Positions 9,121-60,810 of a DNA stretch of 64,000 nucleotides are shown one piece after another (the first letter of the stretch is position 1; every line of letters starts with the position of its first letter). This DNA is from an uncultured Acidobacteriota bacterium. GTDB taxonomy: Bacteria > Acidobacteriota > UBA6911 > RPQK01 > JAPXNP01. The position numbers were made by a program, and so were the translations under genes. The notes below the pieces were generated by a model. The model searched no databases, was not told the origin of the DNA, and saw only the letters and a list, made by a program, of their open reading frames with translations. The stretch spans positions 64,001 to 128,000 of the forward strand of contig CAVZRV010000028.1 in the NCBI GenBank assembly GCA_963777605.1, read 5' to 3'.

Positions 9121-9219
9121 GAACAAGGGACAGACTGGTTCCCGCCCAGGCTGTGAACAAGAACAAGGTTCCCGCCCAGGCTGTGAACAAGAACAAGGGA
9201 CAGACTGGTTCCCGCCCAG
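9121..9219. repeat. Short tandem repeat (30-40 bp units) carrying the GGGACAGAC motif
   Basis: GAACAAGG(GACAGACTGG)TTCCCGCCCAGGCTGTGAACAA occurs three times, the last partial. Confidence 0.8.
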
Positions 9220-9499: not shown

Positions 9500-9528
9500 T
9501 TGCAGGAAAATCGCAGTATCATTATAAT
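9500..9528 (+). promoter_or_regulatory. Sigma70-type promoter for mltF
   Basis: TTGCAG-17bp-TATAAT in an AT-rich patch, 44 bp upstream of the ATG. Confidence 0.6.
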
Positions 9529-9572
9529 AATAAAATACTTATAAAATTTCCACCTTTTCAGGTCGAGTCTTC

Positions 9573-10925: not shown

Positions 10926-11028
10926 CTCCAGCAGGCCAAAACCAGTCTGTCCCTTTCTCCACTTCGAACCTCCATGGACTTCACCGTCTCCCGATTTCTA
11001 TTTATGCCAAGTCAGACACAGAACTCTA

Positions 11029-11057
11029 TTGACACAGATTGATAGCCGGGATAGTGT
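11029..11057 (+). promoter_or_regulatory. Putative sigma70 promoter for the 11256 gene
   Basis: TTGACA-17bp-TAGTGT, overlapped by a direct repeat GACACAGA (11015 and 11031). Confidence 0.4.
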
Positions 11058-11255
11058 CTCTGTGAGAACGAAATCGGCTGGAATACTCCTGTGGCCGACA
11101 CCCGATGGATCGGGACCATTGTCAAAGTCGCCAACCGGGCGTTCTTAAGTCGGTTACGGCTTCAGGATCAGGAAGAAACTTGGGGCTCGTCTCCAGGGAG
11201 ATTCTGATTCTCCCTCCTGCAGCGGCAAATTTCTCTGATATTCGACGGAGGTGCT

Positions 11256-29446: not shown

Positions 29447-29589
29447 CCCAGAAAAGTACCACCAGGTTCTCCGACGCACAACCGCTAACCGGCACTTACG
29501 TCGGCGCCGACCTCCGAATTTCCGAGTCCCAAGCCGGAGGGTCCCCGGCAGTGCCATATCATTCAAAAAGCGCGACTTGGCCCGCCGTA

Positions 29590-29628
29590 CCCGGGGACGT
29601 GGCTTCGCCTTACCCCCGGCTCTGTGTG
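29590..29628 (-). repeat. Solitary REP-like palindrome (CAGAG family)
   Basis: Reverse strand reads CACACAGAG-CCGGGGGT-AA-GGCGAAGCC-AC-GTCCCCGG. Confidence 0.75.
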
Positions 29629-43769: not shown

Positions 43770-45675
43770 TTGTTCTTCCTGAGTTTCCATCGCAAAGACC
43801 CGCCTCCGGACCATTCCGTCAGAAGCCAGGATGTGATTGGCCACCTGATGCCGTTTGCCCAGCCTGACCGAAGCGGCACTTTCGAAGACTGCCGGGCACT
43901 GCTGATCCAGTGCGTCACTTGGAATACCGCCCCGTCCCGGGAGGAGCCGGCGCCGTTCCGTGACCCAGAATCAGGGGTCCTCGCCGCCGCCTGGGCCCGG
44001 ATCGACAACCGGGAGGAACTGGCCGAAGAGCTTGGCATGTCACGGACGGAGGCCAATCGGATCTGCGACACCGAACTGATCTGCCACTGCTACGGCAAGT
44101 GGAGAGAGGATTGTGTCGATCACCTCGTTGGTGACTTCGTCTTTGTGATCTATGACGAGAAAGAGCGTCGGGTCTTCTGCGGTCGCGACCATATGGGAGT
44201 CCGGCCCTTTTACTACTTTCTCTCCGATGACCGGTTCGTCTGTGCCACCAGCATCGCCCCGCTGCTTCATGTCAAAGACTTGCCAATCCAGATCAGCCGG
44301 AAGTGGATCGTCGACTATCTGACCCGCCTGTCGATGAGTTTTGACGAGACCCCGTATCCGCAAATCCGCAAATTGCCCCCGGCCCACACGCTCACCGTCA
44401 CCCCGGAGCAACATCGTCTCCGACGGTATTTCGAACTCTCGGCGCAACCCGGAGCTGAAGCTGAAGGACTCCCGGGAGTATGTGGACGCCTATCGAGAGC
44501 AGTTGGAAACCGCCATCAAATGCCGGCTCGCCACCGGCTACCCCCTCGGCTCCGAACTGAGCGGGGGCATCGATTCATCGACCATCACCGCCTACGCCGC
44601 GAAATTTCTCGGCCGGCAACTCACCCATTTCCACGCGTTCGCTTTCGCTCACCTGGAGATGGAACCGCAGTACATCCTTGCCGTAAGCCAGGCATACGGA
44701 CTCCCGCACACCCACGTCGTGGCGGATCGCCCCCAGGTTACAGATGCGGTCATTGACCGGTCCCTCAGGATTCTCGGCTATCCAGTCGAACACGGCAATG
44801 CCACGTTCCATGAGCTGTTCTACCAGCTGGCGGAACAACTCGATGTGCGGACCCTGCTGTCGGGATTCGGCGGCGATGAGTTCGGGACGACCATCCACGG
44901 CTACATGGTGCCCATGGAATTCATGGTGAAGAATCGTTATCTGGACCTTCTGAACATCCTCCCCGGGAAATCATTTCTCCGTCCCCTGCGACTCGCAAAG
45001 CTGGCGCTCAGAAGAGTGAAAACAAGGAACTTCACCCGCCCTGCGTACAACCCCCGGTTCTTGCAGGCCTGGAACAACCGCTGGCCCCATCAGATCGTGA
45101 CCGACGAGGCGATCAACGCATTCGATCTAAAGACGCGCCATTTCGAAAATGCCCGGTTTGATGCCGGCTACACCGACCTCAAGCGATTCACCATTGAAAA
45201 GCGCTGGATGCCTTTCGTGCCCACCCGCATGGAGAACTGCACTCTCATGGCCGCCGGGCGCAAGATCGAGTACCGCTGGCCATTGCTGGACGTGCGCCTG
45301 GTGAAACTTTGGCTGAGCATCCCGTCAGAGGAAAACTACTTCAGGGGAATGGGCCGCTACCTTCATCGCCGGGCCATCGTCGGGGTCGTCCCGGATCTGG
45401 TCACCTGGAAGGCAAGTAAGGACATGGGAGATCCCGCTCCGAGTAGTGATGCCGTATCCGAGGCGCGCATGGATACCAACGTCCTGGACCAACTCCATCC
45501 GGATCTGAAAGGACTAATCGACGTCGAGAAACTCACTCGACAGGCCGGCAAGATCGCGGACGCTGACACTGCAAGAACTCCTGCTCTTCGCACTCAGATC
45601 AGTCGCAACCTGCGCGCAGTAAAACACCTCGATTACTGGCTAAAGCACTGTCCACCCGGAGCCTCCATAGTGTAA
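43770..45675 (+). CDS. Lasso peptide cyclase (asparagine synthetase-like, C protein); frameshift near 44450
   Basis: ARIDNREEL, LVGDFVFVIYD, RDHMGVRPFYY, ELSGGIDSS, LLSGFGGDE and EYRWPLLD. No N-terminal catalytic Cys is seen. Near RRE, precursor and B2 genes. Confidence 0.8.
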
Positions 45676-46932
45676 GCCGGAGGCATCCCCGCGAGCAGGC
45701 CTCCGTGGATGAGCTGGGGGATCAGGGTTCCCCACCCGGTGTTTCCCTCCAGCAGGAAGGGACCCTGATCCGTAACCACGTAATCCCAGGCAATGGCATA
45801 GACATCCCGGAAGTGTTCGTGCGCGGCAATGGAGTGCCCCTTCATTTCGGCCCAGAAGGGGACAGTCCGGTTTTCGGCCCTGGCGTAGGTTCCCAAAGGC
45901 GGGCTTCGGCTCCGACGGGGAATCGATCCGGCGTCCCACGGCAGGGTCTCTCCACTTTCCCGGTCAATCGGAAGAATGATGTGAAAGGCCCGCCCTCTCG
46001 GAAGGGGCTTTTGGCGGCCTCGTTCTGTCATTGGCCCGGGAATCTCCAGCACGGCTGCGTAGCAACGAGCCGATCGACCGGCCGGGGCCTCGGTAATGAC
46101 CCGGACAGTGACGGCATCATCGCTTTCACAGAGTCCGGCCAGGTCGGGATGGTTCGGCATCAGGGGCTGAACCAGGTAGGGTTCCTGTGCCAGGCTCTCT
46201 CGCAGGCGATCCCACGTCGCTGGGCAAGTCGTCATCCCCTGCCGCGTTTCAAACACGGAGAAGACGGGATTCACCACCGTCCCGCTTCACGACAAAACAT
46301 CCCCGCCCGGCCGACCCGTGGCGAGGTTTGACGAAGAGCCCCGGGTACCCGGTCATCTGAACCGACGCACTGAAATCGCCCCCTGGAGGAATCACTTCCA
46401 GGGTGGGAACCATGGGAATGCCATCTTGACCCAGGATTTCGGCTGTCGCCTGCTTATCTCCGAGAATCCGTCCAGACTCACCGCGGTTCCCGTTTCGCAG
46501 ATCGCGCCATCGATGAAATGCCGGTAGTTCATGGGTGAAGACGTAATTCCAAATCCGCTTGTCTTGACCCTTCCGATACAGCCGGAAAGCATATGTTTCC
46601 GACGGCGGGATACAGCAAGCCAGCGCAACCCGAATCACACGCAGGAACTGGGAGATCATCCCCATGCCGTCCCTATCCCTGACGGTTGGCCCCAGCCGCC
46701 TGACCGCGCGAAAGGTCCCCCGCCAGGAGGAGAAAAGCGTCCAACGGAGATAGAGAAACGCCTCCATCACCAGGAAGAGCGGGAGAGGAGCCCGGGGAAA
46801 GCCCTTGAGCCAGAGACTTCGGTGAATGCGGACTTCAGGAGCTTGACGGGGCAAAAGATAGCGGGGACTCACCAATCCGTGGGGCAGCGAGCGGTTCAGG
46901 AGATGGCGCCTCACGAAACTCCGGAAACTCAT
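45633..46932 (-). CDS. Sugar-transfer-associated ATP-grasp family protein; frameshift near 46270
   Basis: GDKQATAEIL, LFVKPRHGSAGRG, LVQP, TVRVIT and IAWDYVVTDQGPFLLEGN. ATG overlaps the upstream stop (ATGA). Confidence 0.75.
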
Positions 46933-48261
46933 CTTGGCCATCCCGTCCCCAGCGAAGACGAAGGAGGAACCTCTCCCGAAGGAATCTCCGAGTCCGGCAC
47001 GACGACACCCCGAACGCGAAGTAGCCGGCCGGTGTCGGGGGACAGCTCTTTCGAGCTCCATTCGGAGCGACTCTTCACATCACAGCCCAGGCCAAAGTAG
47101 AAATCGCCGTTCAGGATTTCGAATGCCCGGGCGAACGTCGAAGCGGTGAAATGCAGGACCTCGAACCATTCCCTTAGATCACGGCTGCCGATTACCGCGA
47201 CCTCAACGCCGGCTTCACCGGTCGGCCCCTGCAAAAGCACAAACGCGACTCCATCTTGAACGATCAGGTCTCTCGGAAACGTCCGATCCGGCAGCCGGAT
47301 GCGGGCGACCCGGCAGTTTCGAGGCGCCAGGGACTCGGCCCGATAGAGCCCGAATGGGAGCGGACCGGCGGAGCCGATGTAGAGCGCCGCATCGCCCACA
47401 GCCGTGGCCCGATGGATCGAGGATGCTCGCCCCCGGACCTCCGTCGTTTCAGGAAACAACTCCCCGGCGGTGAGGTCGGGCCTGCGCGAAAAGCCCTTCC
47501 CGTCTTCGGCCAGTTCGTAAACCGCGGAATAGTACTTCTCCCGGCCATGGTGCAGTGATCCACGTCTCCAGCCCCGGGCCGGGAAAAACGTCGGTGGCGT
47601 AGAGCCGTCCCGAGACCTGGAGAAAAGTCTGAACGGCATATCCGCCCAGTGGAAAAACCTTCCACGATCCGCCGCGATCTTCGGATACCGCGACCGCCGA
47701 GCCGTAGCCATTGAAATCGACATACCAGGGGACCGTATCCGTAGCCTTAAGCCCGACATAGAGACTCCCGGCGTGGCCAGTCAGAGCGGCGGCATGAATC
47801 GCCCGGGGAATCGTCCGCAACTTCCGCCAATTTCCGCCGGGTTCCCGGCGATAAAGGTTTCCGAGCTCCCAGCCTTCTCTCGGATCGGCACCCGGAATGT
47901 AGAGCGTATCCTCGACGATCTCAAAGCGGCTGATCTCCTCTTCGTCGACTTCCCCTTCCCGAACCACCGTTCCTGCGTCCGGGTCCCACGCCAGAATCGG
48001 CACCGGTCCCGCATTCGGGGCAGGACCGCTGTTGTCGTAGTTGCCCGCGCCGATATAGAGACGCCCGCTGAAAGCCTGCAGGTCCCAGACGTTGCGTGCA
48101 TAGACGGCATCTCCTCCTGAATAGCGGTCAGCAAACGGGATACCAAGGTCCTCGACGCTAGCTGCCCCTCCGGAAAAAGGGCTCACCGGGGGCGCCGGAA
48201 AGCAAAGTCCCCCCATAAACAGAACAGCCAGGACAGTGAAAAGGCTGGCTCGAAACTTCAA
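46929..48261 (-). CDS. Secreted beta-propeller-like hypothetical protein; frameshift near 47550
   Basis: TTG start with signal LKFRASLFTVLAVLFMGGLCFPA, blade-like GRLYIGAG/GSLYVG/LYIGS repeats, and Asp-box SEDRGGSW. Confidence 0.6.
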
Positions 48262-48359
48262 TTCGCATGAATTGGAAGACTTGGACGACTTGGACTCGTT
48301 TGAGCCGGGCTTGATGCGGTCGGTGCAGAGCCGGGGACGCGATCGTCGGCTGGATCCTG

Positions 48360-49190
48360 GTTCCTGGCCCGGCAACAGTTCGGCGGTTCGCCAAAGTTCC
48401 GCAGGCGCAGGCCCGGTGAGGGCCTGCCTCTGTGTGCTCGACGGTCTTGCGGCTGGCGCCAAAACACAGAGCCGGGGGTAAGGCGAAGCCGCGCCCCCGG
48501 GTTCCTGGCCCGGCACCAGTTCGGCGGTTCGCCAAAGTTCCGCAGGCGCAGGCCCGGTGAGGGCCTGCCTCTGTGTGCTCGACGGTCTTGCGGCTGGCTC
48601 CAAAACGCAGAGCCGGGGGTAAGGCGAAGCCGCGGCCCCGGGTTCCTGGCCCGGCACCAATTCGGCGGTTCGCCAACGTTCCGTGGGCGCAGGCCCGGTG
48701 AGGGCCTGCCTCTGTGTGCTCGACGGTCTTGCGGCCGGCGCCAAAACACAGAGCCGGGGGTAAGGAACGCGCCCCCGGGTTCCAAAACACAGAGCCGGGG
48801 GTAAGGCGAAGCCGCCCCCCCGGGTTCCTGGTCCGGCACCAGTTCGGCGGTTCGGCAAAGTTCCGTGGACGCAGGCCCGGTGAGGGCCTGCCTCTGTGTG
48901 CTCGAGGGTCTTGCGGCTGGCGTCCAGACGCAGAGCCGGGGGTAAGGAACGCGCCCCCGGGTTCCAAAACACAGAGCCGGGGGTAAGGCGAAGCCGCCCC
49001 CCCGGGTTCCTGGTCCGGCACCAGTTCGGCGGTTCGGCAAAGTTCCGTGGACGCAGGCCCGGTGAGGGCCTGCCTCTGTGTGCTCGAGGATTTTGTGGCT
49101 GGCGTCCAGACGCAGAGCCGGGGGTAAGGCAAAGCCGCGCCCCCGGGCACATCAGGTCAGGTTTCACTCGATGCCGCGCCCCCGGGCATG
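48360..49190. repeat. BIME/REPIN-like tandem array 1 (five units)
   Basis: Units start at 48360, 48501, 48642, 48824 and 49006 (periods 141, 141, 182, 182 bp). Contains 5 GCAGGCCC-GGTGA-GGGCCTGC hairpins and 7 CAGAG-CCGGGGGTAAGG...CCCCGG hairpins. Confidence 0.92.
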
Positions 49191-49259
49191 TCGGGTAAAA
49201 CTTCACTCTCAGAATCATTCCCCGCGAGGTCGGAGCTCCCCGCAGAACAAGAGCAAAAG

Positions 49260-49562
49260 TCAGTCTGCGTCTTCCACGATCCGGATCGTGCCGTCAGACG
49301 CCAAGTCGTTCAGAAAGTCCAGGACGTCCTCCTGACAACGGCCCTCGTCAACCTCGTAGCGCGCCATCATTGTCTCGCAGATCTCCGACACCCGAACCGG
49401 GTTCTCAAGAAGATCCCAGATTTCACTGGCAATCACGTCAAGCCCGGAATAGGTGCCGTGTTCGACGCTCATCATGACCACTTCATCGTCGAGCAGGCTG
49501 GTTAAAACCTCCTCGGAACGGGCGATCGTCGATCCCAGTTCGACGGTCTTCTGTTTCTCCAT
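49260..49562 (-). CDS. PqqD-family RiPP recognition element (lasso B1)
   Basis: DDEVVMMSVEHGTYSGLDVIASEIWDLLENP...YEVDEGRCQEDVLDFLNDL. Confidence 0.92.
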   Translation of the reverse strand: MEKQKTVELGSTIARSEEVLTSLLDDEVVMMSVEHGTYSGLDVIASEIWDLLENPVRVSEICETMMARYEVDEGRCQEDVLDFLNDLASDGTIRIVEDAD

Positions 49563-49689
49563 AGCCTATCACCACCAGCCTGAACGAACCGATCAGCAGC
49601 CCGGTATCCCCAACTCGACTGAGGTACAGGTCCGATTTCAGTGACGTTTCCGCGGACTCCAGCAGGAAACTGCTATGCTGCAATCGCCC

Positions 49690-49884
49690 TCAAGACGGAC
49701 CCGACTGGTACTTCGTCTCAAGGGAAATGAAGCTTGCTTTCCCTTCCGTAAGGCTTGCAGCCATTTTTCGCCTTGCAGGGCGTGACCAGGGTCGTTTCCC
49801 GCTGCGGGACCGCAACGGAGAATTTTCCAGAGTCCCGTTGACCTTGTCCACACCTGGCTGACCTCGCCGTTCGACTCGTGACAT
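49690..49884 (-). CDS. Lasso peptide precursor A1
   Basis: RBS GGAGGAAGG. Leader has WSRP (Y/WxxP) and Thr at -2. Predicted core GKASFISLETKYQSGPS with Gly1, Glu9 and C-terminal Ser. Confidence 0.85.
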   Translation of the reverse strand: MSRVERRGQPGVDKVNGTLENSPLRSRSGKRPWSRPARRKMAASLTEGKASFISLETKYQSGPS

Positions 49885-50054
49885 ATAGATTCCTTCCTCC
49901 AGCCCTTACCGGCCGGCGCTTCGTACTTGGCCCCATATAATCGCACGCCCCCCCCCACAAAGGCAATCCTCCAACAGGCTTCACGATTGAGAAAAGACAT
50001 CGGATCGGCTATTGATTCACGCTCGCCGAGGGCGCGATCGTCGGCTGGATCCGG

Positions 50055-50811
50055 GTTCCTGGTCCGGCACCAGTTCGGCGGTTCGGCACAGTGCCGTGGA
50101 CGCAGGCCCGGTGAGGGCCTGCCTCTGTGTGCTCGAGGATTTTGCGACTGGCGTCCAGACGCAGAGCCGGGGGTAAGGAACGCGCCCCCGGGTTCCAAAA
50201 CACAGAGCCGGGGGTAAGGCGAAGCCGCCCCCCCGGGTTCCTGGCCCGGCACCAGTTCGGCGGTTCGGCAAAGTTCCGTGGACGCAGGCCCGGTGAGGGC
50301 CTGCCTCTGTGTGCTCGACGGTCTTGCGACTGGCGCCAAAACACAGAGCCGGGGGTAAGGAACGCGCCCCCGGGTTCCAAAACACAGAGCCGGGGGTAGG
50401 CGAAGCCGGCCCCGGGGTCCCTGGCAGGGCAACGCGTTTGGGAGAGTCACGCAAAGCCAGAATGGGTGCTGTCGCCAGAGCATACCGACGGCTTGTGGGT
50501 TGGTGGGCGACCCCGTGGACGCAGGCCCGGTGAGGGCCTGCCTCTGTGTGCTCGACGGTCTTGCGGCTGGCGCCAAAACGCAGAGCCGGGGTAAGGCGGC
50601 CCCGCGCCCCCGGGTTCCTGGCAGGGCAACGCGTTTGGGAGAGTCACGCAAAGCCAGAATGGGTGCTGTCGCCAGAGCATACCGACGGCTTGTGGGTTGG
50701 TGGCGACCCCGTGGGCGCAGGCCCGGTGAGGGCCTGCCTCTGTGTGCTCGACGGTCTTGCGACTGGCGCCCAGACGCAGAGCCGGGGGTAAGGCGAAGCC
50801 GCGCCCCCGGG
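50055..50811. repeat. BIME/REPIN-like tandem array 2 (four units)
   Basis: Same hairpins as array 1 (4 and 6 copies). The last two units carry a different ~100-bp linker (TGGCAGGGCAACGCG...GCGACCCC) repeated twice. Confidence 0.92.
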
Positions 50812-50886
50812 CATGTCGGGTAAAACTTCAACTCTCTGAATCATTCCCCGCGAGGTCGGAGTTCCCCAAGAGAACAAGAGCAAAAG

Positions 50887-51175
50887 TCAGTCTGCGTCTT
50901 CCACGATCCGGATCGTGCCGTCAGACGCCAGGTCGTTCAGAAAGTCGAGGACGTCCTCCTGACAACGGCCCTCGTCGACCTCGTAGCGCGCCATCATTGT
51001 CTCGCAGATCTCCGGACTCGAACCGAGGTACAAGGTCCCAGATTTCAGTGGCAATGTCAGCCCGGAATAGGTGCCGCGTCGACGCTCATCAAGACACTGC
51101 ATGCTGCAGGCTGGTAAAACCTCCTCGGAACGGGCGATCGTCGATCCCAGTTCGACGGTCTTCTCTTCAGATTCT
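50887..51175 (-). pseudogene. Second RRE (lasso B1) copy, disrupted by small deletions
   Basis: C-terminal EICETMMARYEVDEGRCQEDVLDFLNDLASDGTIRIVEDAD is identical to 49260-49562. The 5' half aligns at DNA level with many small gaps (real decay or read error). Confidence 0.75.
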
Positions 51176-51247
51176 CAAGCACCGCTCTAAATCCGACTGG
51201 GCCTACGGAATCACTTCAGTGGAAAGCCCGCCAACCGGCATCTGTCC

Positions 51248-51453
51248 TCAAGAGGGCGCGCTGTTGTATTTGGTGCCCAAAGTCTCTGATGAGGGACGAC
51301 AATCTTCCCTTCTGTAAGGTTTGCGGCCAATCTTTCGCCTCTCCGGGCGTGACCAGGGCCGTCTCCCACTACCGGGCCCCACCGGAGAACGTTCCGGGGT
51401 CCCGTTAACCCTATTCCGCTCCTGGTTGACCTCGTCCATTCGTCTAGTGACAG
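51248..51453 (-). CDS. Lasso peptide precursor A2 (apparent compensating indels)
   Basis: DNA aligns with A1. RRPWSRPERRK is in one frame, LAANLTEGKIVVP in the adjacent frame, then SSETLGTKYNSAPS*. Corrected core: GKIVVPSSETLGTKYNSAPS. Confidence 0.65.
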
Positions 51454-51731
51454 TAACTTCCTTCCTCCAGCCCTCACGGGACGGCGCTTCGTACTTGACC
51501 CAATTATAGTCGCACGCCCCCCCACAAAGACAATCCTCCAACAGGCTTGACGATTGAGAAAAGACATCGGATCGGCTATAAATTCAGGCTCGCCGGCCGG
51601 TGCTGCATGCCTCCGATTGGCCGCTTTCAGGTATTCTCTGGTGTGAGACAGAAGCGGTGGGTTCACGAATCGATCGGGTGGGTAAGGTCCGGTTGACCGA
51701 ACAACGACGCCAAAAGGATTGAAGAGGGTTT

Positions 51732-52631
51732 ATGGGCGGTTTCCATCGGTACCACGTTTTTGGTCTGAATATCGAATCGGCGATCCCGTTTCTGGACATC
51801 CCGGAGACGGAAGGCGCTGCCGACGTGACCATCGACTACGGCACGGTACCTGATGACCTCCCCGGCGCCACGATCAAAGGAGTCCGTTATCAGGCGGGCG
51901 GGGGGGAATTTCTTCTTCGGGTGGACAACGTGGCCCGATACTACGTGGCAAACGGCGCCACGATCATCGTTGAACCGCATCCAGGAGGAGCGGACCACGA
52001 GATTCTTCTCTTCTTGATGGGCTCGGCCATGGGGGCCCTCCTGCACCAGCGCAAGGTCCTGCCTCTGCACGGCAGTGCCGTCAGTCAAGACGGCAGCGGC
52101 ATTATCTTCCTCGGCCCGTCGGCCATCGGCAAGTCGACCCTGGCGGCGGGATTTCAGAAACAAGGTTACGCGCTGCTGGCAGATGACGTCTGCGCCGTAA
52201 CCGCCCAAAACGGGGACACTCCACGCATCATTCCGGGTTTTCCTCGCCTCAAACTGTGGAGGGATGCCCTGGAAAAGCTTGAAGAGAACAAGAGGGGATT
52301 GAATCGGGTTCGCCTCGACGAGACCTTCGAGAAGTACTTCCTGCCTTTTCAGCAACCTCAAAGCGATCCGGTTCCGGTCGGTGCCGTATTTTTACTCAAG
52401 ACGACCAACACCGATACGCTCGCACTTTCCGAACTGAAAGGGAATGAGAAGATCGATCCCCTGATTACCAACACCTACCGGGCCCGGTTCCTCAAGGGTA
52501 TGGGCGACAAGAGGGAACACTTCAGACTCTGTGCGGCCGTTGCCGGAAAAGCTTCGGTCTTCCAGGTCACCAGACCCCTCAAAGGGTTTCGGCTGGAAGA
52601 ATTGATGGCTCTCGTGGAGGAGCATTTTTGA
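51732..52631 (+). CDS. HPr-kinase-like lasso peptide kinase
   Basis: YHVFGLNIES, LPLHGSAV, Walker A GPSAIGKST, LLADD and PGFPRLKLW. Confidence 0.85.
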   Translation: MGGFHRYHVFGLNIESAIPFLDIPETEGAADVTIDYGTVPDDLPGATIKGVRYQAGGGEFLLRVDNVARYYVANGATIIVEPHPGGADHEILLFLMGSAMGALLHQRKVLPLHGSAVSQDGSGIIFLGPSAIGKSTLAAGFQKQGYALLADDVCAVTAQNGDTPRIIPGFPRLKLWRDALEKLEENKRGLNRVRLDETFEKYFLPFQQPQSDPVPVGAVFLLKTTNTDTLALSELKGNEKIDPLITNTYRARFLKGMGDKREHFRLCAAVAGKASVFQVTRPLKGFRLEELMALVEEHF

Positions 52632-53494
52632 CCGTGGGCGGCATTGTCTGGCTGGCATCCTACCCCAAATCCGGAAACACCTGGTTCCGTGTCTTCCTGT
52701 CCAATCTGATGGGTGAACTCGAGGAAGCCGCCAACATCAACGACTTGAAAAGCACCCCCATCGCCAGCGCAGGGGCATTTTCGACGAAGCGGTCGGCTTC
52801 GAATCCTCGGACCTGACCGCGGACGAAATCGACCGGCTCCGGCCTGAAATCTACAATCATATTGCTGCCGAGGCGGACGAGACTCGGTTCATGAAGGTGC
52901 ATGATGCGTACACCGAGATAGCGGCAGGCAGCCCCTGTTTCCGGCCGAGGCCACCCGGGGCGCTATCTATTTCTTGCGCAATCCCCTGGATGTGGCGGTC
53001 TCCTTTGCCCACCATTCAGGACACGATTACGACAAGGCGATCGCCCAGATGGCGGATCAAGAGAACTGCTTTTGCGGCAAAGTCTCGATCGACTGCACAA
53101 CCAGCTCCGGCAGAAGCTCCTCTCCTGGAGTTCCCACGTGATCAGCTGGATGGAAGCTCCCGGCATCGAAGTGTGCCTGGTGAGGTACGAAGACATGAAA
53201 CAGAAACCTCTCGAGACCTTTGAACGAGCGGCGCGTTTTGCCGGGCTTGTCTACGAACAGGCCCAGATTCAAAGAGCCATCGAGCTGAGTGCTTTCGACG
53301 CATTGAAGCGCCAGGAGGAGAAGAACGGTTTCGATGAAAAGAGTCCAAATTCAAAATTCTTTTTCCGAAGAGGGGAAGTCGGCTCCTGGCGGGAGGAGCT
53401 GAATAGCCGGCAGATTGAGAGGATCATCAGCGATCATGGCGAAGCGATGCGCAGATTCGGTTATCTGGATGAGAACGGCAAGGTGCGCCTTTGA
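52628..53494 (+). CDS. PAPS-dependent sulfotransferase; several frameshifts
   Basis: 5'-PSB motif WLASYPKSGNTW, KVHDAY, YFLRNPLDVAVS (alternate frame), VRYEDMK and FFRRGEVGSW. Start overlaps the kinase stop. Confidence 0.82.
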
Positions 53495-53937
53495 CTCGAT
53501 ATCCATCCCTGATCATCCGGTTCTTCAGGAAGCCCCTCGCCGAGCAACTGATCTTCAGTGAAGCGGTTTTCTGGCTTGCCCTCACCCGGATGGCAACGCT
53601 GATCCTACCGTTCAAATGGGTTGCCCGCTTTCTGGGAACCCACATGGCGGAATCGGATCGACTTCATCCCGCCGACCGGACGAGAAAAGCCCGGCGCGTT
53701 GCGTCGTGCATCCGCGCTATGAGCCGCCACCTGCCATGGGACTGTAAATGCCTGGTCCAAGCTATTTCCGGGAAGATGATGCTGGACCGCAGAAACATCT
53801 CCAATACCCTTTACCTCGGGGTCTCCAAAGGCCAGGAGGACGGGCTGATCGCCCATGCCTGGCTGCGTTCCGGTGAAACGATCATCCTCGGAGGTGGCGG
53901 ACTGGACCGGTTCACTGTGGTGGCAACCTTTACCTGA
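53491..53937 (+). CDS. Lasso peptide B2 leader protease (transglutaminase-like)
   Basis: LPWDCKCLVQA...LYLGV...AHAWL (catalytic Cys/His). Start overlaps the sulfotransferase stop. Confidence 0.9.
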   Translation: MTRYPSLIIRFFRKPLAEQLIFSEAVFWLALTRMATLILPFKWVARFLGTHMAESDRLHPADRTRKARRVASCIRAMSRHLPWDCKCLVQAISGKMMLDRRNISNTLYLGVSKGQEDGLIAHAWLRSGETIILGGGGLDRFTVVATFT

Positions 53938-53968
53938 GGAAACCTGAAGAGGCCGCTCATCGGGGTCG

Positions 53969-54706
53969 ATGAAAACAACCGGGATAAGTGATCGAAAGGC
54001 AAGGATGAATAAGAACAACTTGAGGCACACCTGCATAATCTGCGGAAAGATCTTCCCGGACCGACAACTGGTCTCCGGTTCGGCCGTTCGAGATGTTCTC
54101 TCCACTGAGATTGCCCGCGATCATCCTTCCTGGTCGTCCGAAAGCCACATTTGCCGGCCGGATCTGGCGGAATACCGAACGCAGTATGTCCGTCACCTGC
54201 TCGAGTCCGAAAAAGGTGACATTACGGCGCTGGAGCAGGAGGTCCTCAACAGCATGCAGGCCCATGAACTGCTCGCCCGGAACGTCGATGCCGAGTTCGA
54301 GCAGGTGTGGACCTTCGGCGAGCGACTGGCCGACCGGATCGCGTCATTTGGCGGAAGCTGGGCTTTCATGATCTGTTTTGCCGCCTTCCTGGGATTGTGG
54401 ATCGGAATGAATTCCCTGGTGCTTCTGTGGCGTCCCCTGGATCCCTATCCGTTCATCTTCCTCAATCTGATTCTATCCTGCCTGGCCGCCGTCCAGGCAC
54501 CGATCATCATGATGAGCCAGAACCGCCAGGAGGCAAAGGATCGCGTTCGTTCTCAGCACGATTACCAGGTGAACCTCAAGGCGGAACTTGAGATCCGCCA
54601 ACTCCATGAAAAGATCGACCACCTGCTCTCCCACCAGTGGGACCGTCTGGCTCAGATCCAGGAGATCCAGCTCGACCTCCTTAACGAACTGGGCAAGAAA
54701 CGATAA
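53969..54706 (+). CDS. DUF1003 membrane protein
   Basis: TFGERLADRIASFGGSW, DPYPFIFLNLILS and QAPIIMMSQNRQ. Confidence 0.92.
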   Translation: MKTTGISDRKARMNKNNLRHTCIICGKIFPDRQLVSGSAVRDVLSTEIARDHPSWSSESHICRPDLAEYRTQYVRHLLESEKGDITALEQEVLNSMQAHELLARNVDAEFEQVWTFGERLADRIASFGGSWAFMICFAAFLGLWIGMNSLVLLWRPLDPYPFIFLNLILSCLAAVQAPIIMMSQNRQEAKDRVRSQHDYQVNLKAELEIRQLHEKIDHLLSHQWDRLAQIQEIQLDLLNELGKKR

Positions 54707-55229
54707 CCGGCGACCAGGAGATTCGCGGTGCCAGGATCGAAGGCCAGCGCAGTCGGCGCCGAGGAGAGGGGCCCGGGTCGGGACCGGGCGGCTAGTTCAT
54801 GGAAGCCCGCTCCCTCCGCGCGCGGAGACCATTCAGAGCGTGAAACTGGGGCGGGCGCACCGGACCTGGCACGCGGCCGGTGTTCAGAACGAGAGTAAAG
54901 CGAGCGCTACGCCTGACTCCCATCCATTACCAGTCCTGGATCTTGACTCCATCCCACGGTTGCGGCCTCCGGCAGCACTTCCGCTGACTCACCATCGTCC
55001 GGAGCCGCGGTCGCTCACACTCGCGTTCTGAAATCGGGGCATCCAGGATCCAGCCGAGAGCCAGGCTTCTAAGTTCCACCGATCGCCCGAATCTCCGTCC
55101 AGACGCATCCAACGGGACGAAACATGGCCGCTGCAGAAGAAACTGACCCGCATTTACTGGTGGGGCCCGGATCCGGCGAATCTCAAAGCCGGCATTCGAT
55201 AACGGTCACACCGTTTCATCCACGTTCTC

Positions 55230-55262
55230 ACTGCGGGAGGCTCGCAAGAAGCCTCCCGCAGT
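55230..55262 (-). terminator. Hairpin downstream of the tricorn gene
   Basis: ACTGCGGGAGGCT-CGCAAGA-AGCCTCCCGCAGT: perfect 13-bp stem, 12 bp after the stop. Confidence 0.6.
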
Positions 55263-55274
55263 CGGGGAACCCGG

Positions 55275-58200
55275 TTACGGTTTCTGGTAGTTCGGATACG
55301 GTGGACGGGTGAACGTCGGCGGATTGTAGTCCTTGAGCAATTTCAGGACTTCCTCCACGGCTCTTTCCAGCTGAGGGTCGTGCCCTTCCCGCACCAACTT
55401 CGGATCCATTTCGACTTCGATGTCCGGTGGCACTCCGTGGTTTTCCACGTCCCATATCCCGTCCGGAGAGTAAAAGGCGAGGTTCGGAGTACCCACATGG
55501 CCGCCGTCCAGGAGGTCCCCAGGGTTTGTGTAGTGTCCCACCAGCCCACCCCAGGTCCGCTTTCCGACCAGAGGTCCGATACCGGCCCGACGAAACATCC
55601 AGGGCATTGCATCGCCACCCGATCCTGCCAGTTCATTGATGATCATGACTTTCGGTCCGAAGATCGCCTCGATCGGAGTGGTGATGTCCTTCCCTTCCCG
55701 CATCGTGAAGTAGTTCAGGAGCGGCCGGCGCAGGAGATCGATCACGTAATCCGCGATGTCACCACCTCCGTTGAAGCGCTCGTCGATGATCGCGGCATCC
55801 TTTCCAACCTGCGCGAAGTAGTACCGGTTGAAGTTGGCGTAGCCCCCCTCATAGGTGTCTGGGAGGTAAACATACGCCACTCGGCCACCCGTCAATTCGT
55901 CCACCTTGCGCCGGTTGCCTTCGATCCAGGCGAGATTGCGCAGCCCCGATTCGCTCGCCACCGGCACCACCGTAGCCGTCCGGGAGTCTTGATCGTTCGG
56001 GTTTGGCCCAACTTTCAGGACCACTTGGACACCGGCCGTCTCCTCGAAAAACCGGTACAGGTTGTCCCCCGCATTGAGTTCCCGTCCGTTGACGGCCAGA
56101 AGATACTCACCCTCCTGAACGTTGACACCAGGTTGAGTGAGTGGGGCAACCAGCTTCGGGTTCCAGTTCTCACCGTTGAAGATCCGAGAGAAACGGTATC
56201 GCCCGTTTTCGACATCGTAATCCGCTCCCAGAAGTCCGCCCTTTACCTTCTTGACCTCAGGGAAGTCTCCACCCCCCACGAACATGTGCCCGACAGTCAA
56301 CTCCCCGAGCATTTCCTCGAATAGGTAATTGAGGTCATCGCGGCTTGAGATGCCGTCAAGGAAGGGTTCGTACCGGGCCTTCATGACGTCAATGTCCAGA
56401 CCGTGCAGGCCGGGATCGTAGAAGAAGTCCCGTTCGTCCCGCCAAACCTGCTCGAACATGTGTTGCCATTCGGCCGTCGGGTCAACGTAGACCTGCATCG
56501 CGTCGAGCTGCAGAGTACCGCCTTCCCCAGGCTTCGGGGCTCCCCCCGACAGCTTGCCGGCCGGGGCGATCGTCCACTGTTCCTTCTTCCGGAAGAGCAT
56601 CTTCTCTCCGCCGTCGGCGAGTTCGAAACTCTGGACGTCATCCAGGATCTGCTCCACCTTGCGCGTCTTCAGGTCAAACTGCTGAACCTCCAGCGAAAGC
56701 GAGCCGGGGTCAACCTCAGGACCGATGACAAGGGGACCTGCGGCAAGAAACAACACGCCCGACCTGCCGGCCGCCAGCGAAAGGTAGTTGCGGGCCGGAA
56801 TCGGCAGAGTCAGGATGCGTTGGCTGAGCCCGTCGAAGTCGATGGTGACCGGCCCAGGCTTCTCCACCTTGTCCTTTTCCCCCGTTTCAGTCGAGTCATT
56901 GCTCTCGGTCTTCTCCTCGTCGCTTTCCGGAGCGAGGGGAGACGGGAGGTCCTTTCTCAATACGACGATATAAACGCTTCTGGTCACCGGGTGGTTGAGG
57001 CTGGACATGTCGAGCCAACCCGGAGTGAGGCCCATGTCGGTGCTGGCAGTAAAGAAGAGGTGCTTCCCGTCAAGGTCAAAGCGGGGGAACAGCGCATCAC
57101 TCATCCCATCCGTCACCTGCCGGCTCAACTTCTCCTCCAGGGAATAGACAAACACCGCATGGAGGTGACTGACCAGCTGACGCGTGTATGCGATCCACCG
57201 ACTGTCCGGAGCCCAGGAAATCACCAGAGTCGGGTTCGGATCGATGTAGGTATCCCGGTCGATCCGCACCGGTTCAGGGTTCTCCAGGTCGACGTACCAG
57301 ATGTCGAGCCGCTTGTCCGAGTAGGCAATTTTTCGGGAATCCGGAGACCAGACCGGGTGGTAGAAGAATGTCGGTGGTTCTCCCAGGGGGATCCGCGTGA
57401 CCGGCCCGAGGCCTCCCTGATCCCTGATGTTCAGCTCATACTCTCCGGATTCGTCCGAGAAGTAGGCGATCGACTTGCCGTCCGGAGACCAGGCAGGAAA
57501 GATCTCCGACACCGCCACGGTGTTGGTGAGATTCCGAATATCCCCCTTTTCAGCCGGAACGGTCAGTATCTCCCCCCGGACTCCGAAAAGAGCTCGGGCT
57601 CCATTCGGAGAGATACCCGCCGACTGGATCTGCGCAGGCTTGATCTTCTCGAAGTGGGGACGGACCTGCGGAAGATCGCCGGCGACCCGGACATCCAGGT
57701 CCCGACCCGCGCCCTCGGCAACGTTATACACGTGCAATGAGCCAAACTGTTCATAGATGATGCGGCTTCCGTCTGCCGAGGCCGCCTTCAGATCCAATCC
57801 GTTGTTCTCGACTACCTGGCGAACCGTTTTCGAACCAGTGTCGTAGGCGAACAGTGAGACGGGACCATTTCGGTCGGACAGGAAGTAGACCGTCCGACCG
57901 ATCCAGATCGGGTTGAAGTCGTTGGAATTCTCGCGTGGAATTTCCGCTTCGACTCGGGAATCTGTCAAGTCCACAATCCAGATCTTCTTCGTCTGACCGC
58001 CCCGGTACCGCTTCCAAGCCTTCTGCCACTGGATCGTGGGAACGTATGCCATGCGTTTGCCGTCCGGAGAGAAGCATCCGTCTTCTCCCATTGGCAGGGG
58101 CAGGACTTCGGCGTCGCCTCCATCCACCGGGATCGTGAAAAGGCGAGGAAAGTAGGAGTGACTCTGACGGGGAGAATTGAAAAGTACGCGACTCCCGTCC

Positions 58201-58544
58201 GGAGTCCAGCCAACGGTTTCGTCCGGCCCCGGGTGGTAGGTCAACCGTTTCGGAATCCCGCCCGACACCGCGATTACATAAACGTCCTGGTTGCCGTCGT
58301 ATTCCGCCGTGAACGCAACCCACTTTCCGTCGGGAGAAAAGAACGGCCTGCTCTCATTCCCGACACCGGTTGTCAATCGATGGGGCGTTCCTCCCGCCAG
58401 GGAGGCTACCCAAAGGTCTCCGCCGTAGGCAAACGCGACCTGATCTCCGTGTAACGCAGGGTTGCGGAGCAACTGGGGACCGTCAGTCCCCGCCAAAACC
58501 AAACTCAGACCGGCAAACCAAAACAACAATCCTCTGACGATCAC
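55275..58544 (-). CDS. Tricorn protease homolog (peptidase S41 with beta-propellers and PDZ)
   Basis: Signal peptide, PD40 repeats (SPDGKWVAF), IIDERFNGGG, catalytic AGSGGD, GKRTWGG and ENHGVPPD. Confidence 0.93.
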   Translation of the reverse strand: MIVRGLLFWFAGLSLVLAGTDGPQLLRNPALHGDQVAFAYGGDLWVASLAGGTPHRLTTGVGNESRPFFSPDGKWVAFTAEYDGNQDVYVIAVSGGIPKRLTYHPGPDETVGWTPDGSRVLFNSPRQSHSYFPRLFTIPVDGGDAEVLPLPMGEDGCFSPDGKRMAYVPTIQWQKAWKRYRGGQTKKIWIVDLTDSRVEAEIPRENSNDFNPIWIGRTVYFLSDRNGPVSLFAYDTGSKTVRQVVENNGLDLKAASADGSRIIYEQFGSLHVYNVAEGAGRDLDVRVAGDLPQVRPHFEKIKPAQIQSAGISPNGARALFGVRGEILTVPAEKGDIRNLTNTVAVSEIFPAWSPDGKSIAYFSDESGEYELNIRDQGGLGPVTRIPLGEPPTFFYHPVWSPDSRKIAYSDKRLDIWYVDLENPEPVRIDRDTYIDPNPTLVISWAPDSRWIAYTRQLVSHLHAVFVYSLEEKLSRQVTDGMSDALFPRFDLDGKHLFFTASTDMGLTPGWLDMSSLNHPVTRSVYIVVLRKDLPSPLAPESDEEKTESNDSTETGEKDKVEKPGPVTIDFDGLSQRILTLPIPARNYLSLAAGRSGVLFLAAGPLVIGPEVDPGSLSLEVQQFDLKTRKVEQILDDVQSFELADGGEKMLFRKKEQWTIAPAGKLSGGAPKPGEGGTLQLDAMQVYVDPTAEWQHMFEQVWRDERDFFYDPGLHGLDIDVMKARYEPFLDGISSRDDLNYLFEEMLGELTVGHMFVGGGDFPEVKKVKGGLLGADYDVENGRYRFSRIFNGENWNPKLVAPLTQPGVNVQEGEYLLAVNGRELNAGDNLYRFFEETAGVQVVLKVGPNPNDQDSRTATVVPVASESGLRNLAWIEGNRRKVDELTGGRVAYVYLPDTYEGGYANFNRYYFAQVGKDAAIIDERFNGGGDIADYVIDLLRRPLLNYFTMREGKDITTPIEAIFGPKVMIINELAGSGGDAMPWMFRRAGIGPLVGKRTWGGLVGHYTNPGDLLDGGHVGTPNLAFYSPDGIWDVENHGVPPDIEVEMDPKLVREGHDPQLERAVEEVLKLLKDYNPPTFTRPPYPNYQKP

Positions 58545-59067
58545 TATCCACCCCGCTTTCAGGAAATCGAAGAGGTATCGCCCCCAGCGACCCGGCATTC
58601 TCCCTGGTTCGACCTGGGCTCGAGCACCTGCTCGCGGCTATTATGTCACCTGGCCGAAAAAACAGAATAGGCCGGCTTCCGGTCGCTCTGGCTTGCCAGA
58701 GTTTCAATCGAACAGCGTCTCAAAGGCCCGGGTTACGAGAGTCTGTTCCTGATTTCCAGACATTCTTTGCTCGTCAACCTGGCCAAGGCATATGGAAACA
58801 GTGACAGGAAACCGGACCGCTGGGTTACCGGGCGTCCCCGAGCTCTCCCTGATGGCCAGTTTCGCCTATTGGCAACTGGTCAAAGAAGCGGTTCTGGCGC
58901 TTCACGCACTGGAACCGATCCAAAATCGGCAATTTCCAGTAAACTTGGCCACGTCCGTTGAAGCGGGGATAAAGAGGCCCGTTGAACATTGGCCACAGCG
59001 GGACTGAGAGTCGGGGAGCAATGAGGGAATTTGATCGCACTTTCCGGCGTGACGATTCGGGGAGATC

Positions 59068-60810
59068 ATGAGTCTGTTCCGGCTTCCGGCCGCTCTTACA
59101 GCTCAGGTCAGGCGATTTCTGTCCGGCGCCGGTTACCGCGGAATCCTCCTCTTCTTTTTGACTCTCACTGCCGGACTCTTCCAGGGGGCAGGTCTGATGC
59201 TGCTGATTCCCCTCCTGCACATCATCGGCATCGGCGATAAGGAAGGGGCCGCCGACAGTATCACTCGTTGGATCAGTCGAGGCTTTGACCTCCTCGGCCT
59301 CCCCCTCAATCTGCCCATGGTCCTGGCAGCGTTCGTCGTGCTGGCGTCGATCCAGGCCCTTCTCCTGTTCGGGCAATCCGTGCTGGGAACGTCTCTGGTT
59401 CAGGACTACATTCGCTCGCTCCGCAACGATCTCTTTCGGGGGATGGCGATGGCTCCCCCATCCCACCTCTCGAAGCGGAGGGCTTCCGACCTCCTCCACC
59501 TGACGGCACATGACATCAATCAAGTCGGCGCCGGAACCCAGCAGGCTTTTAACCTGGTGCGTGACCTGCTCATTTCGCTGGTCTTCGTCGGGCTGAGTTT
59601 CACGATTTCGGTCCCGCTAAGCCTGCTGGCTCTGCTGAGTGGACTTATTCTTGTGGTCCTTCTGCGGCCGCTCAATCGAACCTCACAACAGACCGGGCAG
59701 AGATTGCGGAACAGAATGGAGGCACTCACGGCTGACGTCTCGGACCTGTTGTCGGGTTTGAAGCTCGTCAAAGCATTCGGACGGGAGTGCACGGCAATCG
59801 AGCGATTCAGAGAGAGAAACGACGAGACCTGGTCGGAGCAGATCGGTTTCGTCAAAGCCAGGTCGGGGACCCAGGTTTTTTCGCAGATCGGCAGCGCTAT
59901 CACGATGGCGCTCTTCGTGTTCGTCGCGTCTAAAGGGCTCATGATCCCGGCCTCGGAGTACCTGGTCATGATTCTGCTCTTCTCCCGCCTCCTCCCTCGG
60001 GTTTCCGCCCTGCAGCAGTCATGGCAGTTCATTTGCCACAGTCAATCTTCACTGGATGCGATCCAGAATGCTCTGACGGAACTATCGGCCCACCAGGAGG
60101 CACCGCTGAAGTTTTCCGAGCCACCCCTCCAACTGCGGAAGAAGATCACCTTTTCGGAGGTCACCTTTCGTTATGCTCCGGGCCTCGAACCCGCAGTCCG
60201 GAGCCTGAAGTTCGAAATCCCGGCCGGGCAGATCACCGCTGTTCTGGGTCCTTCCGGATCGGGGAAGACGACGATGGCGGACCTCATCGCCGGCCTGCTT
60301 TCCCCGGAAACAGGTTCGATTTCGGTGGACGGTAGGCCGCTCGACCGTTTCCTGGTTCCTCGATGGAGACGGTCCATCGGTTACGTCCCCCAGGAGAGCT
60401 ACCTCTTTCACGAGTCCATCCGGTCCAACCTCCTCTGGGCCCGTCCTGAAGCCTCGGAGGATGAACTCTGGGACGCGCTGCGCCTTGCGGGAGCCGAACG
60501 GTTCGTGTCCCGTCTCGATCGAGGGCTCGACACGGTCGTTCGGGACCGGGGGGGCCGACTCTCCGGCGGCGAACGACAGAGGGTCGCCCTGGCGCGTGCC
60601 CTCCTGATTCGGCCGACCCTGCTCTTGCTCGACGAGGCAACCAGCGAAGTGGACCGAAAGAGTCAAGAGCGAATCCTCGACTCGGTGGCCGGTCTCAAGG
60701 GAAAGATGACCGTCGTGATCATCGCCCACCATGCCCCGGTTGAAGGCATCGCCGACCAGGTGCTGGTGATGGAACAGGGGAGCGTCCGCGTTTCCAAGCT
60801 GGTTCACTGA
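59068..60810 (+). CDS. ABC exporter (fused permease/ATPase), candidate lasso peptide exporter
   Basis: ~6 TM segments, GPSGSGKT, LSGGERQR and LLLDEAT. Confidence 0.9.
   Translation: MSLFRLPAALTAQVRRFLSGAGYRGILLFFLTLTAGLFQGAGLMLLIPLLHIIGIGDKEGAADSITRWISRGFDLLGLPLNLPMVLAAFVVLASIQALLLFGQSVLGTSLVQDYIRSLRNDLFRGMAMAPPSHLSKRRASDLLHLTAHDINQVGAGTQQAFNLVRDLLISLVFVGLSFTISVPLSLLALLSGLILVVLLRPLNRTSQQTGQRLRNRMEALTADVSDLLSGLKLVKAFGRECTAIERFRERNDETWSEQIGFVKARSGTQVFSQIGSAITMALFVFVASKGLMIPASEYLVMILLFSRLLPRVSALQQSWQFICHSQSSLDAIQNALTELSAHQEAPLKFSEPPLQLRKKITFSEVTFRYAPGLEPAVRSLKFEIPAGQITAVLGPSGSGKTTMADLIAGLLSPETGSISVDGRPLDRFLVPRWRRSIGYVPQESYLFHESIRSNLLWARPEASEDELWDALRLAGAERFVSRLDRGLDTVVRDRGGRLSGGERQRVALARALLIRPTLLLLDEATSEVDRKSQERILDSVAGLKGKMTVVIIAHHAPVEGIADQVLVMEQGSVRVSKLVH

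Follow-up and report, generated by a model that had tools for sequence, protein, structure and literature searches.

A probable split-B lasso-peptide gene cluster with kinase, sulfotransferase, and ATP-grasp genes in an uncultured Acidobacteriota bacterium

Lasso peptides are valued as stable scaffolds and as antibiotics, and each new tailoring enzyme widens what these scaffolds allow. This report concerns a probable lasso-peptide gene cluster at positions 43770-60810 of a 64,000-nucleotide stretch of contig CAVZRV010000028.1 (referred to here, at its full length, as the window), which comes from an uncultured Acidobacteriota bacterium. The closest described systems are lasso clusters that carry a kinase. 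The available portions of two reviews name paeninodin, the ThcoK and SyanK products, and pseudomycoidin as kinase-tailored lasso peptides, and describe the proteobacterial kinase clusters (SyanK, ThcoK) as giving polyphosphorylated products (PMC8498205, PMC9266682). The same portions mention a putative sulfotransferase gene in some lasso clusters, without characterisation. A 2014 survey of anaerobes, in the part available, lists an HPr kinase and a sulfotransferase in some lasso clusters and assigns no role to them (PMC4289311). A term search of a 2026 review (PMC13352647) returned 0 occurrences of “sulfotransferase” or “ATP-grasp”. In the literature at large, judged mostly from abstracts and with subscription papers outside the search, no study of an ATP-grasp enzyme or a sulfotransferase acting on a lasso peptide was found, nor was any mention of the Pfam name or number of the ATP-grasp family described below. 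Kinase tailoring is already characterised. Reports that lasso clusters can contain sulfotransferases date back to 2014-2016, and no account of an ATP-grasp partner was found.

Gene content was taken from the open reading frame (ORF) listing of the window and from Pfam and NCBIfam scans of its proteins. With a probability of roughly 0.8, the region is a split-B lasso-peptide cluster that belongs to a kinase/sulfotransferase/ATP-grasp subfamily of the known kinase-tailored lasso clusters. All four core parts were detected. The cyclase (C), the leader peptidase (B2), and the leader-binding RRE protein (B1) were each found by family-specific models, and a precursor (A) accompanies them. The subfamily is small, and no characterised member was found. 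It otherwise occurs mainly in metagenome-assembled genomes (MAGs) labelled Desulfobacteraceae, Geobacteraceae, Pelobacter, Deltaproteobacteria, and Nitrospirota. The window cluster is spread over at least three transcription units; a scan for promoters and terminators gave no excess over shuffled sequence (3 vs 3.7 and 12 vs 18.1, respectively). Whether the window copy is functional is uncertain. A sequence-only reading of this DNA had described a split-B lasso cluster from a poorly studied lineage, and the matches to cyclase, RRE, precursor, and B2 agree with the first half of that description. The second half is borne out by the window Lgt protein, which has 14 relatives at E ≤ 1e-20 with best identities of 80, 79, and then 49%, so the source lineage is thinly sampled.

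The cyclase gene (43770-45675, plus strand) encodes an asparagine-synthase-like protein with GATase_7 and Asn_synthase domains. A single frameshift divides it into frames at 43770-44756 and 44341-45675. The best NCBIfam model for the pieces is the lasso cyclase model NF033535, with E values of 2.8e-55 and 7.7e-37, although these scores, from a gene split by a frameshift, are below the curated cutoff. The sequence-only reading had placed a lasso cyclase here and had named grouping with AsnB as the point to check; the lasso-cyclase model is far ahead of the asparagine-synthase models, which only reach E 1e-25. The PP-loop motif SGGxDS is present.

Three overlapping genes on the plus strand encode an intact HPr-kinase-like lasso kinase (51732-52631; Hpr_kinase_C), a sulfotransferase of the 3'-phosphoadenosine-5'-phosphosulfate (PAPS) type with three frameshifts (52628-53494; Sulfotransfer_1), and an intact transglutaminase-like B2 leader peptidase (53491-53937; Transglut_core3). 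There is a 4-nucleotide overlap both between the kinase and sulfotransferase genes and between the sulfotransferase and B2 genes, as expected of the coupled kinase-sulfotransferase-B2 operon that had been read at 51732-53937. Of 2593 candidates, 531 proved homologous to the kinase at E ≤ 1e-3; apart from the kinase itself, the closest of them is 69% identical. The nearest solved structures to the kinase are HprK/P proteins. An alignment of 28 sequences shows no variation at residues H113, K134, D151, and D152. A His-Lys-Asp-Asp catalytic motif of lasso kinases is named in the available part of PMC9266682, and the four residues probably correspond to it. Together with a precursor core that ends in Ser (below), this invariance upholds the view of the kinase as paeninodin-type. 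The B2 protein scores 102.6 bits against NF033537 (cutoff 33), and none of 49 aligned sequences differs from it at Cys87 or His122. The first sulfotransferase piece contains the PAPS-loop motif. Among solved structures, the glycopeptide O-sulfotransferases come closest to this enzyme, with Teg12 and Teg14 (E 9e-15 to 2e-13) ahead of StaL (E ~2e-6); animal aryl sulfotransferases also match. The product would be a candidate for sulfation.

Related loci (72, cited below by L numbers) were retrieved from the genome contigs by means of an alignment of 28 kinase homologues, the best kinase match to the window being 67% identical. They are mostly from MAGs named Desulfobacteraceae, Smithella, Geobacter/Pelobacter, Deltaproteobacteria, Nitrospirota, Acidobacteriota, and others. 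Conservation was counted by tblastn of the window proteins against these loci, and since many loci are cut by contig ends the counts are lower bounds. Matches were found for the cyclase in 51 of the 72 loci, B2 in 49, the RRE protein in 46, the sulfotransferase in 33, an ABC (ATP-binding cassette) protein of any kind in 28, and the ATP-grasp protein in 11. Where the sulfotransferase is present (33/72), its gene directly follows that of the kinase. The arrangement RRE-ATP-grasp-C with kinase-sulfotransferase-B2, with or without the ABC gene, recurs in L003, L004, L005, L007, L017, and L029. The same lasso gene set is found in L002, L009, L034, and L048, while L051 ends at the kinase.

The RRE1 (B1) gene (49260-49562, minus strand) is intact and encodes a PqqD-like leader-binding protein (PqqD, E = 1.3e-18) that scores 77.2 bits against the lasso PqqD model NF033536, for which the cutoff is 80. 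Directly upstream and adjoining it is the intact gene for precursor A1 (49690-49884, minus strand), which is 64 amino acids in length, was recognised by a family regular expression and by translation, and is preceded by a GGAGG-type ribosome-binding site. In A1, basic residues follow the W-x-x-P leader motif, and a Thr occupies position -2. Its core is 17 residues long, with a Gly-Lys start, Glu9, and a Gly-Pro-Ser end. A1 thus has each feature of a lasso precursor: the leader, Thr at -2, Gly1, and a Glu at position 9, within the required 7-9. The regular expression (aromatic-x-x-Pro in the leader, then Thr-x, a small residue at core position 1, and Asp or Glu at 7-9) was applied to all six frames of the 72 loci and the window. 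It returned 54 hits, 17 of which have a Gly start and a Ser end, and A1 is the sole window hit among these 17 over both strands and all frames. The leader and core pattern of A1 recurs in L003, L004, L005 (two copies), L017, and L051, and a relaxed expression also finds A1-type precursors in L002 and L007. A 7-residue leader from an internal ATG/TTG was considered and dropped because the long W-x-x-P leader is conserved in frame in other loci. A structured RNA in the conserved 300 nucleotides upstream of each RRE gene was likewise rejected; this conserved stretch is the leader-coding region, and Rfam gave 0 matches at E ≤ 1 over positions 40000-64000.

Between the cyclase and RRE1 genes is a gene for an ATP-grasp ligase of the ATPgrasp_ST type (45633-46941, minus strand), with PF14397 matches on both of the pieces into which one frameshift divides it. 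Intact orthologues, measured as stop-to-stop frames, are 413-489 amino acids long and align across the two window frames. The ATP-grasp gene is present in 11 of the 72 kinase loci. Ten of these are among the 11 loci whose cyclase is at least 50% identical to that of the window, L033 being the exception, and in eight loci (L003, L004, L005, L007, L017, L029, L034, and L051) the gene lies between the RRE and cyclase genes. A cyclase tree was built with IQ-TREE from 30 rows, consisting of the C-terminal piece of the window cyclase and 29 locus ORFs aligned over at least 250 residues; shorter cyclase matches were omitted. The tree contains a 13-row clade with a long stem and a support of 100/100, and 12 of its rows, including the window, are from ATP-grasp loci. 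The window cyclase is sister to the L002 cyclase with a support of 99/96. One labelled cyclase row outside the clade is a second L003 cyclase, from another lasso cluster at that locus. From this tracking of one strongly supported cyclase clade (12 of 13 rows), the ATP-grasp gene appears to be an integral part of the cluster. The sequence-only reading had placed the ATP-grasp gene and a propeller gene inside the cluster. Their location stands, but the ATP-grasp gene covaries with the cyclase clade and is not a mere insert.

Two of these loci have arrangements of their own. L003, from a Pelobacter-type MAG, holds two adjacent lasso clusters (1-4800 and 5600-12400), each with a kinase, an RRE, a cyclase, and a precursor, and only one of them has the ATP-grasp gene. 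In L033 (7329-9587), from a Syntrophorhabdaceae chromosome, the cyclase falls in the ATP-grasp-linked clade, yet its gene directly follows that of the RRE; the ATP-grasp gene has apparently been lost there.

An AlphaFold2 model of the L009 orthologue of the ligase, computed from a 10-sequence alignment, has a predicted local distance difference test score (pLDDT) of 75.4. In it, the ATP-grasp body is preceded by ~150 N-terminal residues that are helical. Foldseek matches to this model were generic, namely D-Ala-D-Ala ligases (Ddl), PsnB, RimK, and LysX, and a sequence search against solved structures gave marginal matches only (E 0.03-0.67). The subfamily comprises 47 clusters at E ≤ 1e-10 among 5832 candidates. 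Its members, where named, are called “sugar-transfer associated ATP-grasp” or hypothetical.

The precursors of the ATP-grasp loci share features that bear on a possible substrate. Counting the window, there are 12 ATP-grasp loci, and the regular expression scans detected 9 precursors, distributed over 8 of these loci. A Gly-Lys start is found in 8 of the 9, the L007 precursor having Gly-Ser-Gly-Lys. All 9 end in Ser, in a main list that had been filtered beforehand for a Ser end, and 7 of the 9 end in Gly/Ala-Pro/Ala-Ser. Eight of the 9 cores contain a single acidic residue. Among Gly-start/Ser-end precursors from other clusters, a Gly-Lys start is found in 2 of 10; the contrast is suggestive only, because the precursor sequences are related to one another. 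Since the lone Glu is required for the lasso ring, the ATP-grasp enzyme would have to act on the amine of Lys2, on the C-terminal carboxylate, or on a substrate from outside the peptide. We tentatively propose, with the odds leaning against it, that the enzyme adds an amide-bond modification of a type so far undescribed in lasso peptides, at the Lys2 side chain or the C-terminal carboxylate, in addition to phosphorylation and sulfation. If so, the modification could be, for example, a lactam from Lys2 to the C-terminus that locks the tail, or an added amino acid, and the product would be a triply tailored lasso scaffold carrying an ATP-grasp amide, a phosphate, and a sulfate.

A biosynthetic route can be outlined for an intact cluster of this type. 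RRE1 would bind A1 through the W-x-x-P leader, as in its family; RRE and leader are a textbook binding pair. The HPr-kinase homologue would phosphorylate the linear precursor at the hydroxyl of its C-terminal Ser, a reaction established for PadeK, ThcoK, and SyanK. B2 would cleave after the Thr-x site, and the cyclase would link the Gly1 amine to Glu9 to give a 9-residue ring with an 8-residue tail. The sulfotransferase may O-sulfate a hydroxyl or the phosphate. On the strength of conservation, the ATP-grasp enzyme may build an amide linkage on the core, the most plausible sites being the amine of the conserved Lys2 and the C-terminal carboxylate. An ABC transporter would export the product. 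The candidate for this last role is encoded at 59068-60810 on the plus strand, where the ABC exporter of the sequence-only reading was recovered with ABC_membrane and ABC_tran domains. Near-full-length homologues (38-40% identity) are located beside kinase genes in L001, L016, and L048, which makes the window protein a plausible and, by this comparison, probable D protein.

The minus-strand gene next to the ATP-grasp gene encodes a signal-bearing beta-propeller protein with an N-terminal hydrophobic helix (~46929-48280, the 5' end being approximate). It has one frameshift and no Pfam match, and was delineated with the L009 orthologue, which aligns to the window at 67% and 55% identity in two frames. 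The AlphaFold2 model of that orthologue has a pLDDT of 90.8 and matches WD40/Kelch-like propellers. A Protein Atlas search with the propeller returned only clusters named “hypothetical protein”. The family is large: 1350 representatives match at E ≤ 1e-3, and 267 still do so at E ≤ 1e-30. The gene is present in 2 of the 72 loci: it adjoins the ATP-grasp gene in L009, and in L002 there is a short C-terminal match several kb away. The propeller is tied to the ATP-grasp gene only in the closest relatives, and is treated here as a clade-specific neighbour.

The second precursor-RRE cassette is also on the minus strand. It is composed of an RRE2 remnant (~50887-51190), a pseudogene as assembled that was delimited by alignment of both cassettes, and a degenerate precursor copy, A2 (51248-51439), recognised by translation and by the same alignment as an open frame of 63 amino acids. 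The two cassettes align at 84% mean column identity. The 3' half of RRE2 and its downstream flank are nearly identical to copy 1. In the 5' half the start region is deleted, and there are several indels of 1-29 nucleotides, including indels of 1 and 4 nucleotides. A2 retains the W-x-x-P leader and a related C-terminal tail, and has lost the start codon used by A1. Because of a +1/-1 indel pair, the Thr-x/Gly-Lys junction of A2 reads only in another frame. Judged from the alignment, cassette 2 is read as a decayed tandem duplicate. Of the two RRE and precursor pairs described in the sequence-only reading, only A1-RRE1 is usable, as the start of RRE2 is lost and A2 is degenerate.

Two tandem arrays of a repetitive extragenic palindrome (REP)-like unit are interleaved with these cassettes, as had been read. 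One is downstream of RRE1 (48359-49208), with Tandem Repeats Finder periods of 141-323 nucleotides and 2.5-3 copies. The other, also located by tandem-repeat finding, is downstream of the RRE2 remnant (50051-50811, with unit matches to 50830). The unit of these arrays also occurs at 1181-1390 and 29587-29627 in the window. It was found in none of the 72 related loci, and an inverted-repeat search in the REP array gave 0 pairs.

Six single-base frameshifts affect four genes of the cluster. They were placed by tblastn of intact homologues from L002, L003, L005, L009, and L017 against the window. The cyclase has one on the plus strand (~44446-44450), where homologues align in frame 3 and then frame 1. 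The ATP-grasp gene and the propeller gene each have one on the minus strand, at ~46262-46270 (intact orthologues) and ~47551-47585 (L009 orthologue), respectively. The sulfotransferase has three on the plus strand (~52740-52785, 52932-52938, and 53081-53087), and its homologues align in frames 2, 1, 3, and 2. Every break is at or near a run of 3-5 identical bases. No stop codons occur in the frames used by these genes. The frameshifted pieces are 50-80% identical to their homologues; the corresponding value for the intact kinase is 66%. The kinase, B2, RRE1, A1, ABC, and 3.3-kb tricorn genes have no frameshift. Elsewhere in the window, at 16518-18261 on the minus strand, a 494-codon frame ends in Asp-rich repeats, and a Dockerin_1/TSP3_bac tail with no evident start codon lies in another frame. 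A codon-usage frame scan places a frame switch at 16899/16900, outside the cluster. The shifted Dockerin_1/TSP3 tail near 16.9 kb indicates that the contig probably contains at least one frameshift outside the cluster. The scan caught 2 of the 6 known cluster frameshifts and is thus of low sensitivity.

The frameshifts are somewhat more likely to be assembly errors than true lesions, and the opposite view is a serious one, a little short of even odds. It holds that the cluster is a decaying relic in which the frameshifts are real, the cyclase is dead, and no lasso peptide is made. Six frameshifts in four genes, with the essential cyclase among them and three in the 0.87-kb sulfotransferase, are what such a relic would display, as are the clearly degenerate second cassette with its multi-base deletions and the REP-like arrays within the minus-strand operon. 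A decaying cluster would be harder to reconcile with frames free of in-frame stops, with identities to orthologues as high as for intact genes, with breaks that all coincide with or lie near short homopolymers, with the likely frameshift outside the cluster, and with an intact kinase, B2, RRE1, A1, and ABC gene. Several observations weigh against the interpretation of the region as a kinase/sulfotransferase/ATP-grasp lasso cluster. The essential cyclase is broken as assembled. The six frameshifts fall in ~5.3 kb (cyclase, ATP-grasp, propeller, and sulfotransferase) and none in ~3.6 kb (kinase, B2, RRE1, A1, and ABC), nor in the 3.3-kb tricorn gene, so that the breaks look concentrated. Polishing errors would be an unlikely source of the multi-base deletions in cassette 2. 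A distance of 5 kb, with unrelated genes in it, separates the ABC gene from B2. The regular expression scans, which were not supplemented by a profile search, recognised no precursor in 4 of the 12 ATP-grasp loci (L009, L029, L034, and L048). The targets of the sulfotransferase and of the ATP-grasp enzyme are inferred. The closest matches to the RRE1 protein (60-64%) come from L010, L016, and L022, which are Desulfobacter-type loci without the ATP-grasp gene and with the RRE gene beside B2. Its identity to the RRE of L002, which is the nearest relative for the cyclase and kinase and a near relative for the ATP-grasp protein, is only ~40%, and the cluster therefore looks mosaic. The earlier statement that the products are phosphorylated and possibly sulfated peptides goes too far for the window copy, in which the cyclase and sulfotransferase genes are broken as assembled.

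Two further alternatives concern what the genes do rather than whether they are intact. The ATP-grasp and propeller proteins could act on a non-peptide target, such as a cell-surface polysaccharide, and be mere neighbours of the lasso genes. The “sugar-transfer associated” name of the Pfam family, the generic outcome of the fold search, and the large and mostly unlinked propeller family (1350 representatives against 2 of 72 loci) would all fit. We regard this as unlikely, because the ATP-grasp gene lies between the RRE and cyclase genes in the eight loci named above, tracks one cyclase clade, and belongs to a small subfamily (47 of 5832 candidates), and because the precursors of its loci share Gly-Lys starts. 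Far less probable still is that the cluster makes no lasso peptide at all, the asparagine-synthase homologue being a true amidotransferase and the remainder a PqqD/HprK peptide system of the GeoRSP or SynChlorMet (SCM) type. The RRE and the kinase weakly match GeoRSP and SCM models of NCBIfam (E 4e-8 to 5e-4), which points in that direction, as does the below-cutoff NF033535 score of the cyclase; however, C, B2, and the RRE each match a lasso-specific model best, Thr at -2, Gly1, and Glu9 are all present in the precursor, and no radical-SAM gene was seen in the region by the Pfam scan. A kinase-tailored lasso cluster of the ATP-grasp subfamily remains the preferred interpretation.

The genes between and around the cluster parts are, by comparison with the related loci, not conserved with it. 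A DUF1003 membrane protein gene (53969-54706, plus strand) begins on the same strand as B2, 32 nucleotides beyond its stop codon, and may be cotranscribed with it. An intact tricorn-like S41 protease of 1107 amino acids (55275-58598, minus strand; Tricorn and Peptidase_S41) lies between this gene and the ABC gene. It was considered as a lasso isopeptidase of the Atxe2 type and rejected: NF033523 gives 85.7 bits against a cutoff of 400, and the match is confined to a propeller segment (residues 54-143), the catalytic part being Peptidase_S41/tricorn. The tricorn gene has a match in 1 of the 72 loci, so its co-location may be due to chance. In that locus, L008 (1-1842 and 11640-11837), there is a tricorn homologue (47%) and a short C-terminal fragment right after B2. 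The DUF1003, GH109, PAF-AH-like, and beta-lactamase-like proteins each have matches in 0 of the 72 loci, and the flanking hydrolases among them are thus not part of the conserved set. Farther away, the minus strand (3713-8729 and 20325-27852) encodes a series of large proteins that are predicted to be at the cell surface and in which Cohesin, TIG, SBBP beta-propeller, FG-GAP, and DUF7948 domains occur. Combined with the dockerin tail at 16.5 kb, they hint at a cohesin-dockerin surface system.

The analysis provides a test set that consists of the 12-locus subfamily including the window, a precursor signature, and apparently intact orthologous clusters (for example L003, L005, and L017). The intact orthologues are better suited than the window copy, which may be non-functional, to work on the chemistry of the ATP-grasp enzyme and the sulfotransferase.

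Among known systems, graspetides are made by an ATP-grasp ligase that forms side-chain ester or amide rings between several Asp/Glu residues and Ser/Thr/Lys. The window enzyme resembles the graspetide ligases (PsnB, microviridin MdnB/C) in having an ATP-grasp fold in a ribosomal peptide setting, and PsnB is among its top Foldseek hits. It differs in its Pfam family (ATPgrasp_ST) and in its extra helical N-terminal domain of ~150 amino acids. With one acidic residue in 8 of the 9 cores, ladders of side-chain lactones or lactams are not possible. Membership of the graspetides was rejected, since that single residue is needed for the lasso ring and the likeness to PsnB is at the fold level only.

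The predicted clusters of Geobacter uraniireducens Rf4, Pelobacter propionicus, and Desulfobacca acetoxidans are, as described in the available part of PMC4289311, relatives at the deltaproteobacterial level. They are known from genome mining only, and that part does not mention an ATP-grasp gene. The SyanK (Sphingobium yanoikuyae) and ThcoK clusters share with the window a kinase, a C-terminal Ser, and a gene order unlike the Firmicutes type (PMC8498205, PMC9266682). In the portions available, no sulfotransferase or ATP-grasp role is described for them, and the likeness is one of description, not of kinase sequence. The pseudomycoidin cluster of Bacillus pseudomycoides has a second tailoring enzyme, the nucleotidyltransferase PsmN, beside the kinase PsmK, and this enzyme acts on the phosphorylated C-terminal Ser according to the available part of PMC8498205. 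By analogy, PsmK and PsmN can be taken as a precedent for the kinase-sulfotransferase pair, with the difference that PsmN is described there as adding a hexose and the window partner is a PAPS-type sulfotransferase. The paeninodin cluster of Paenibacillus dendritiformis C454 (PadeK) shares the split B1/B2, the asparagine-synthase-like cyclase, the HPr-kinase homologue, the Ser-ending core, and the ABC exporter (PMC8498205, PMC9266682). It is a compact single operon from Firmicutes with no ATP-grasp gene among the genes described in those portions, whereas the window cluster has at least three transcription units, a sulfotransferase gene that overlaps the kinase gene, and an ATP-grasp gene.

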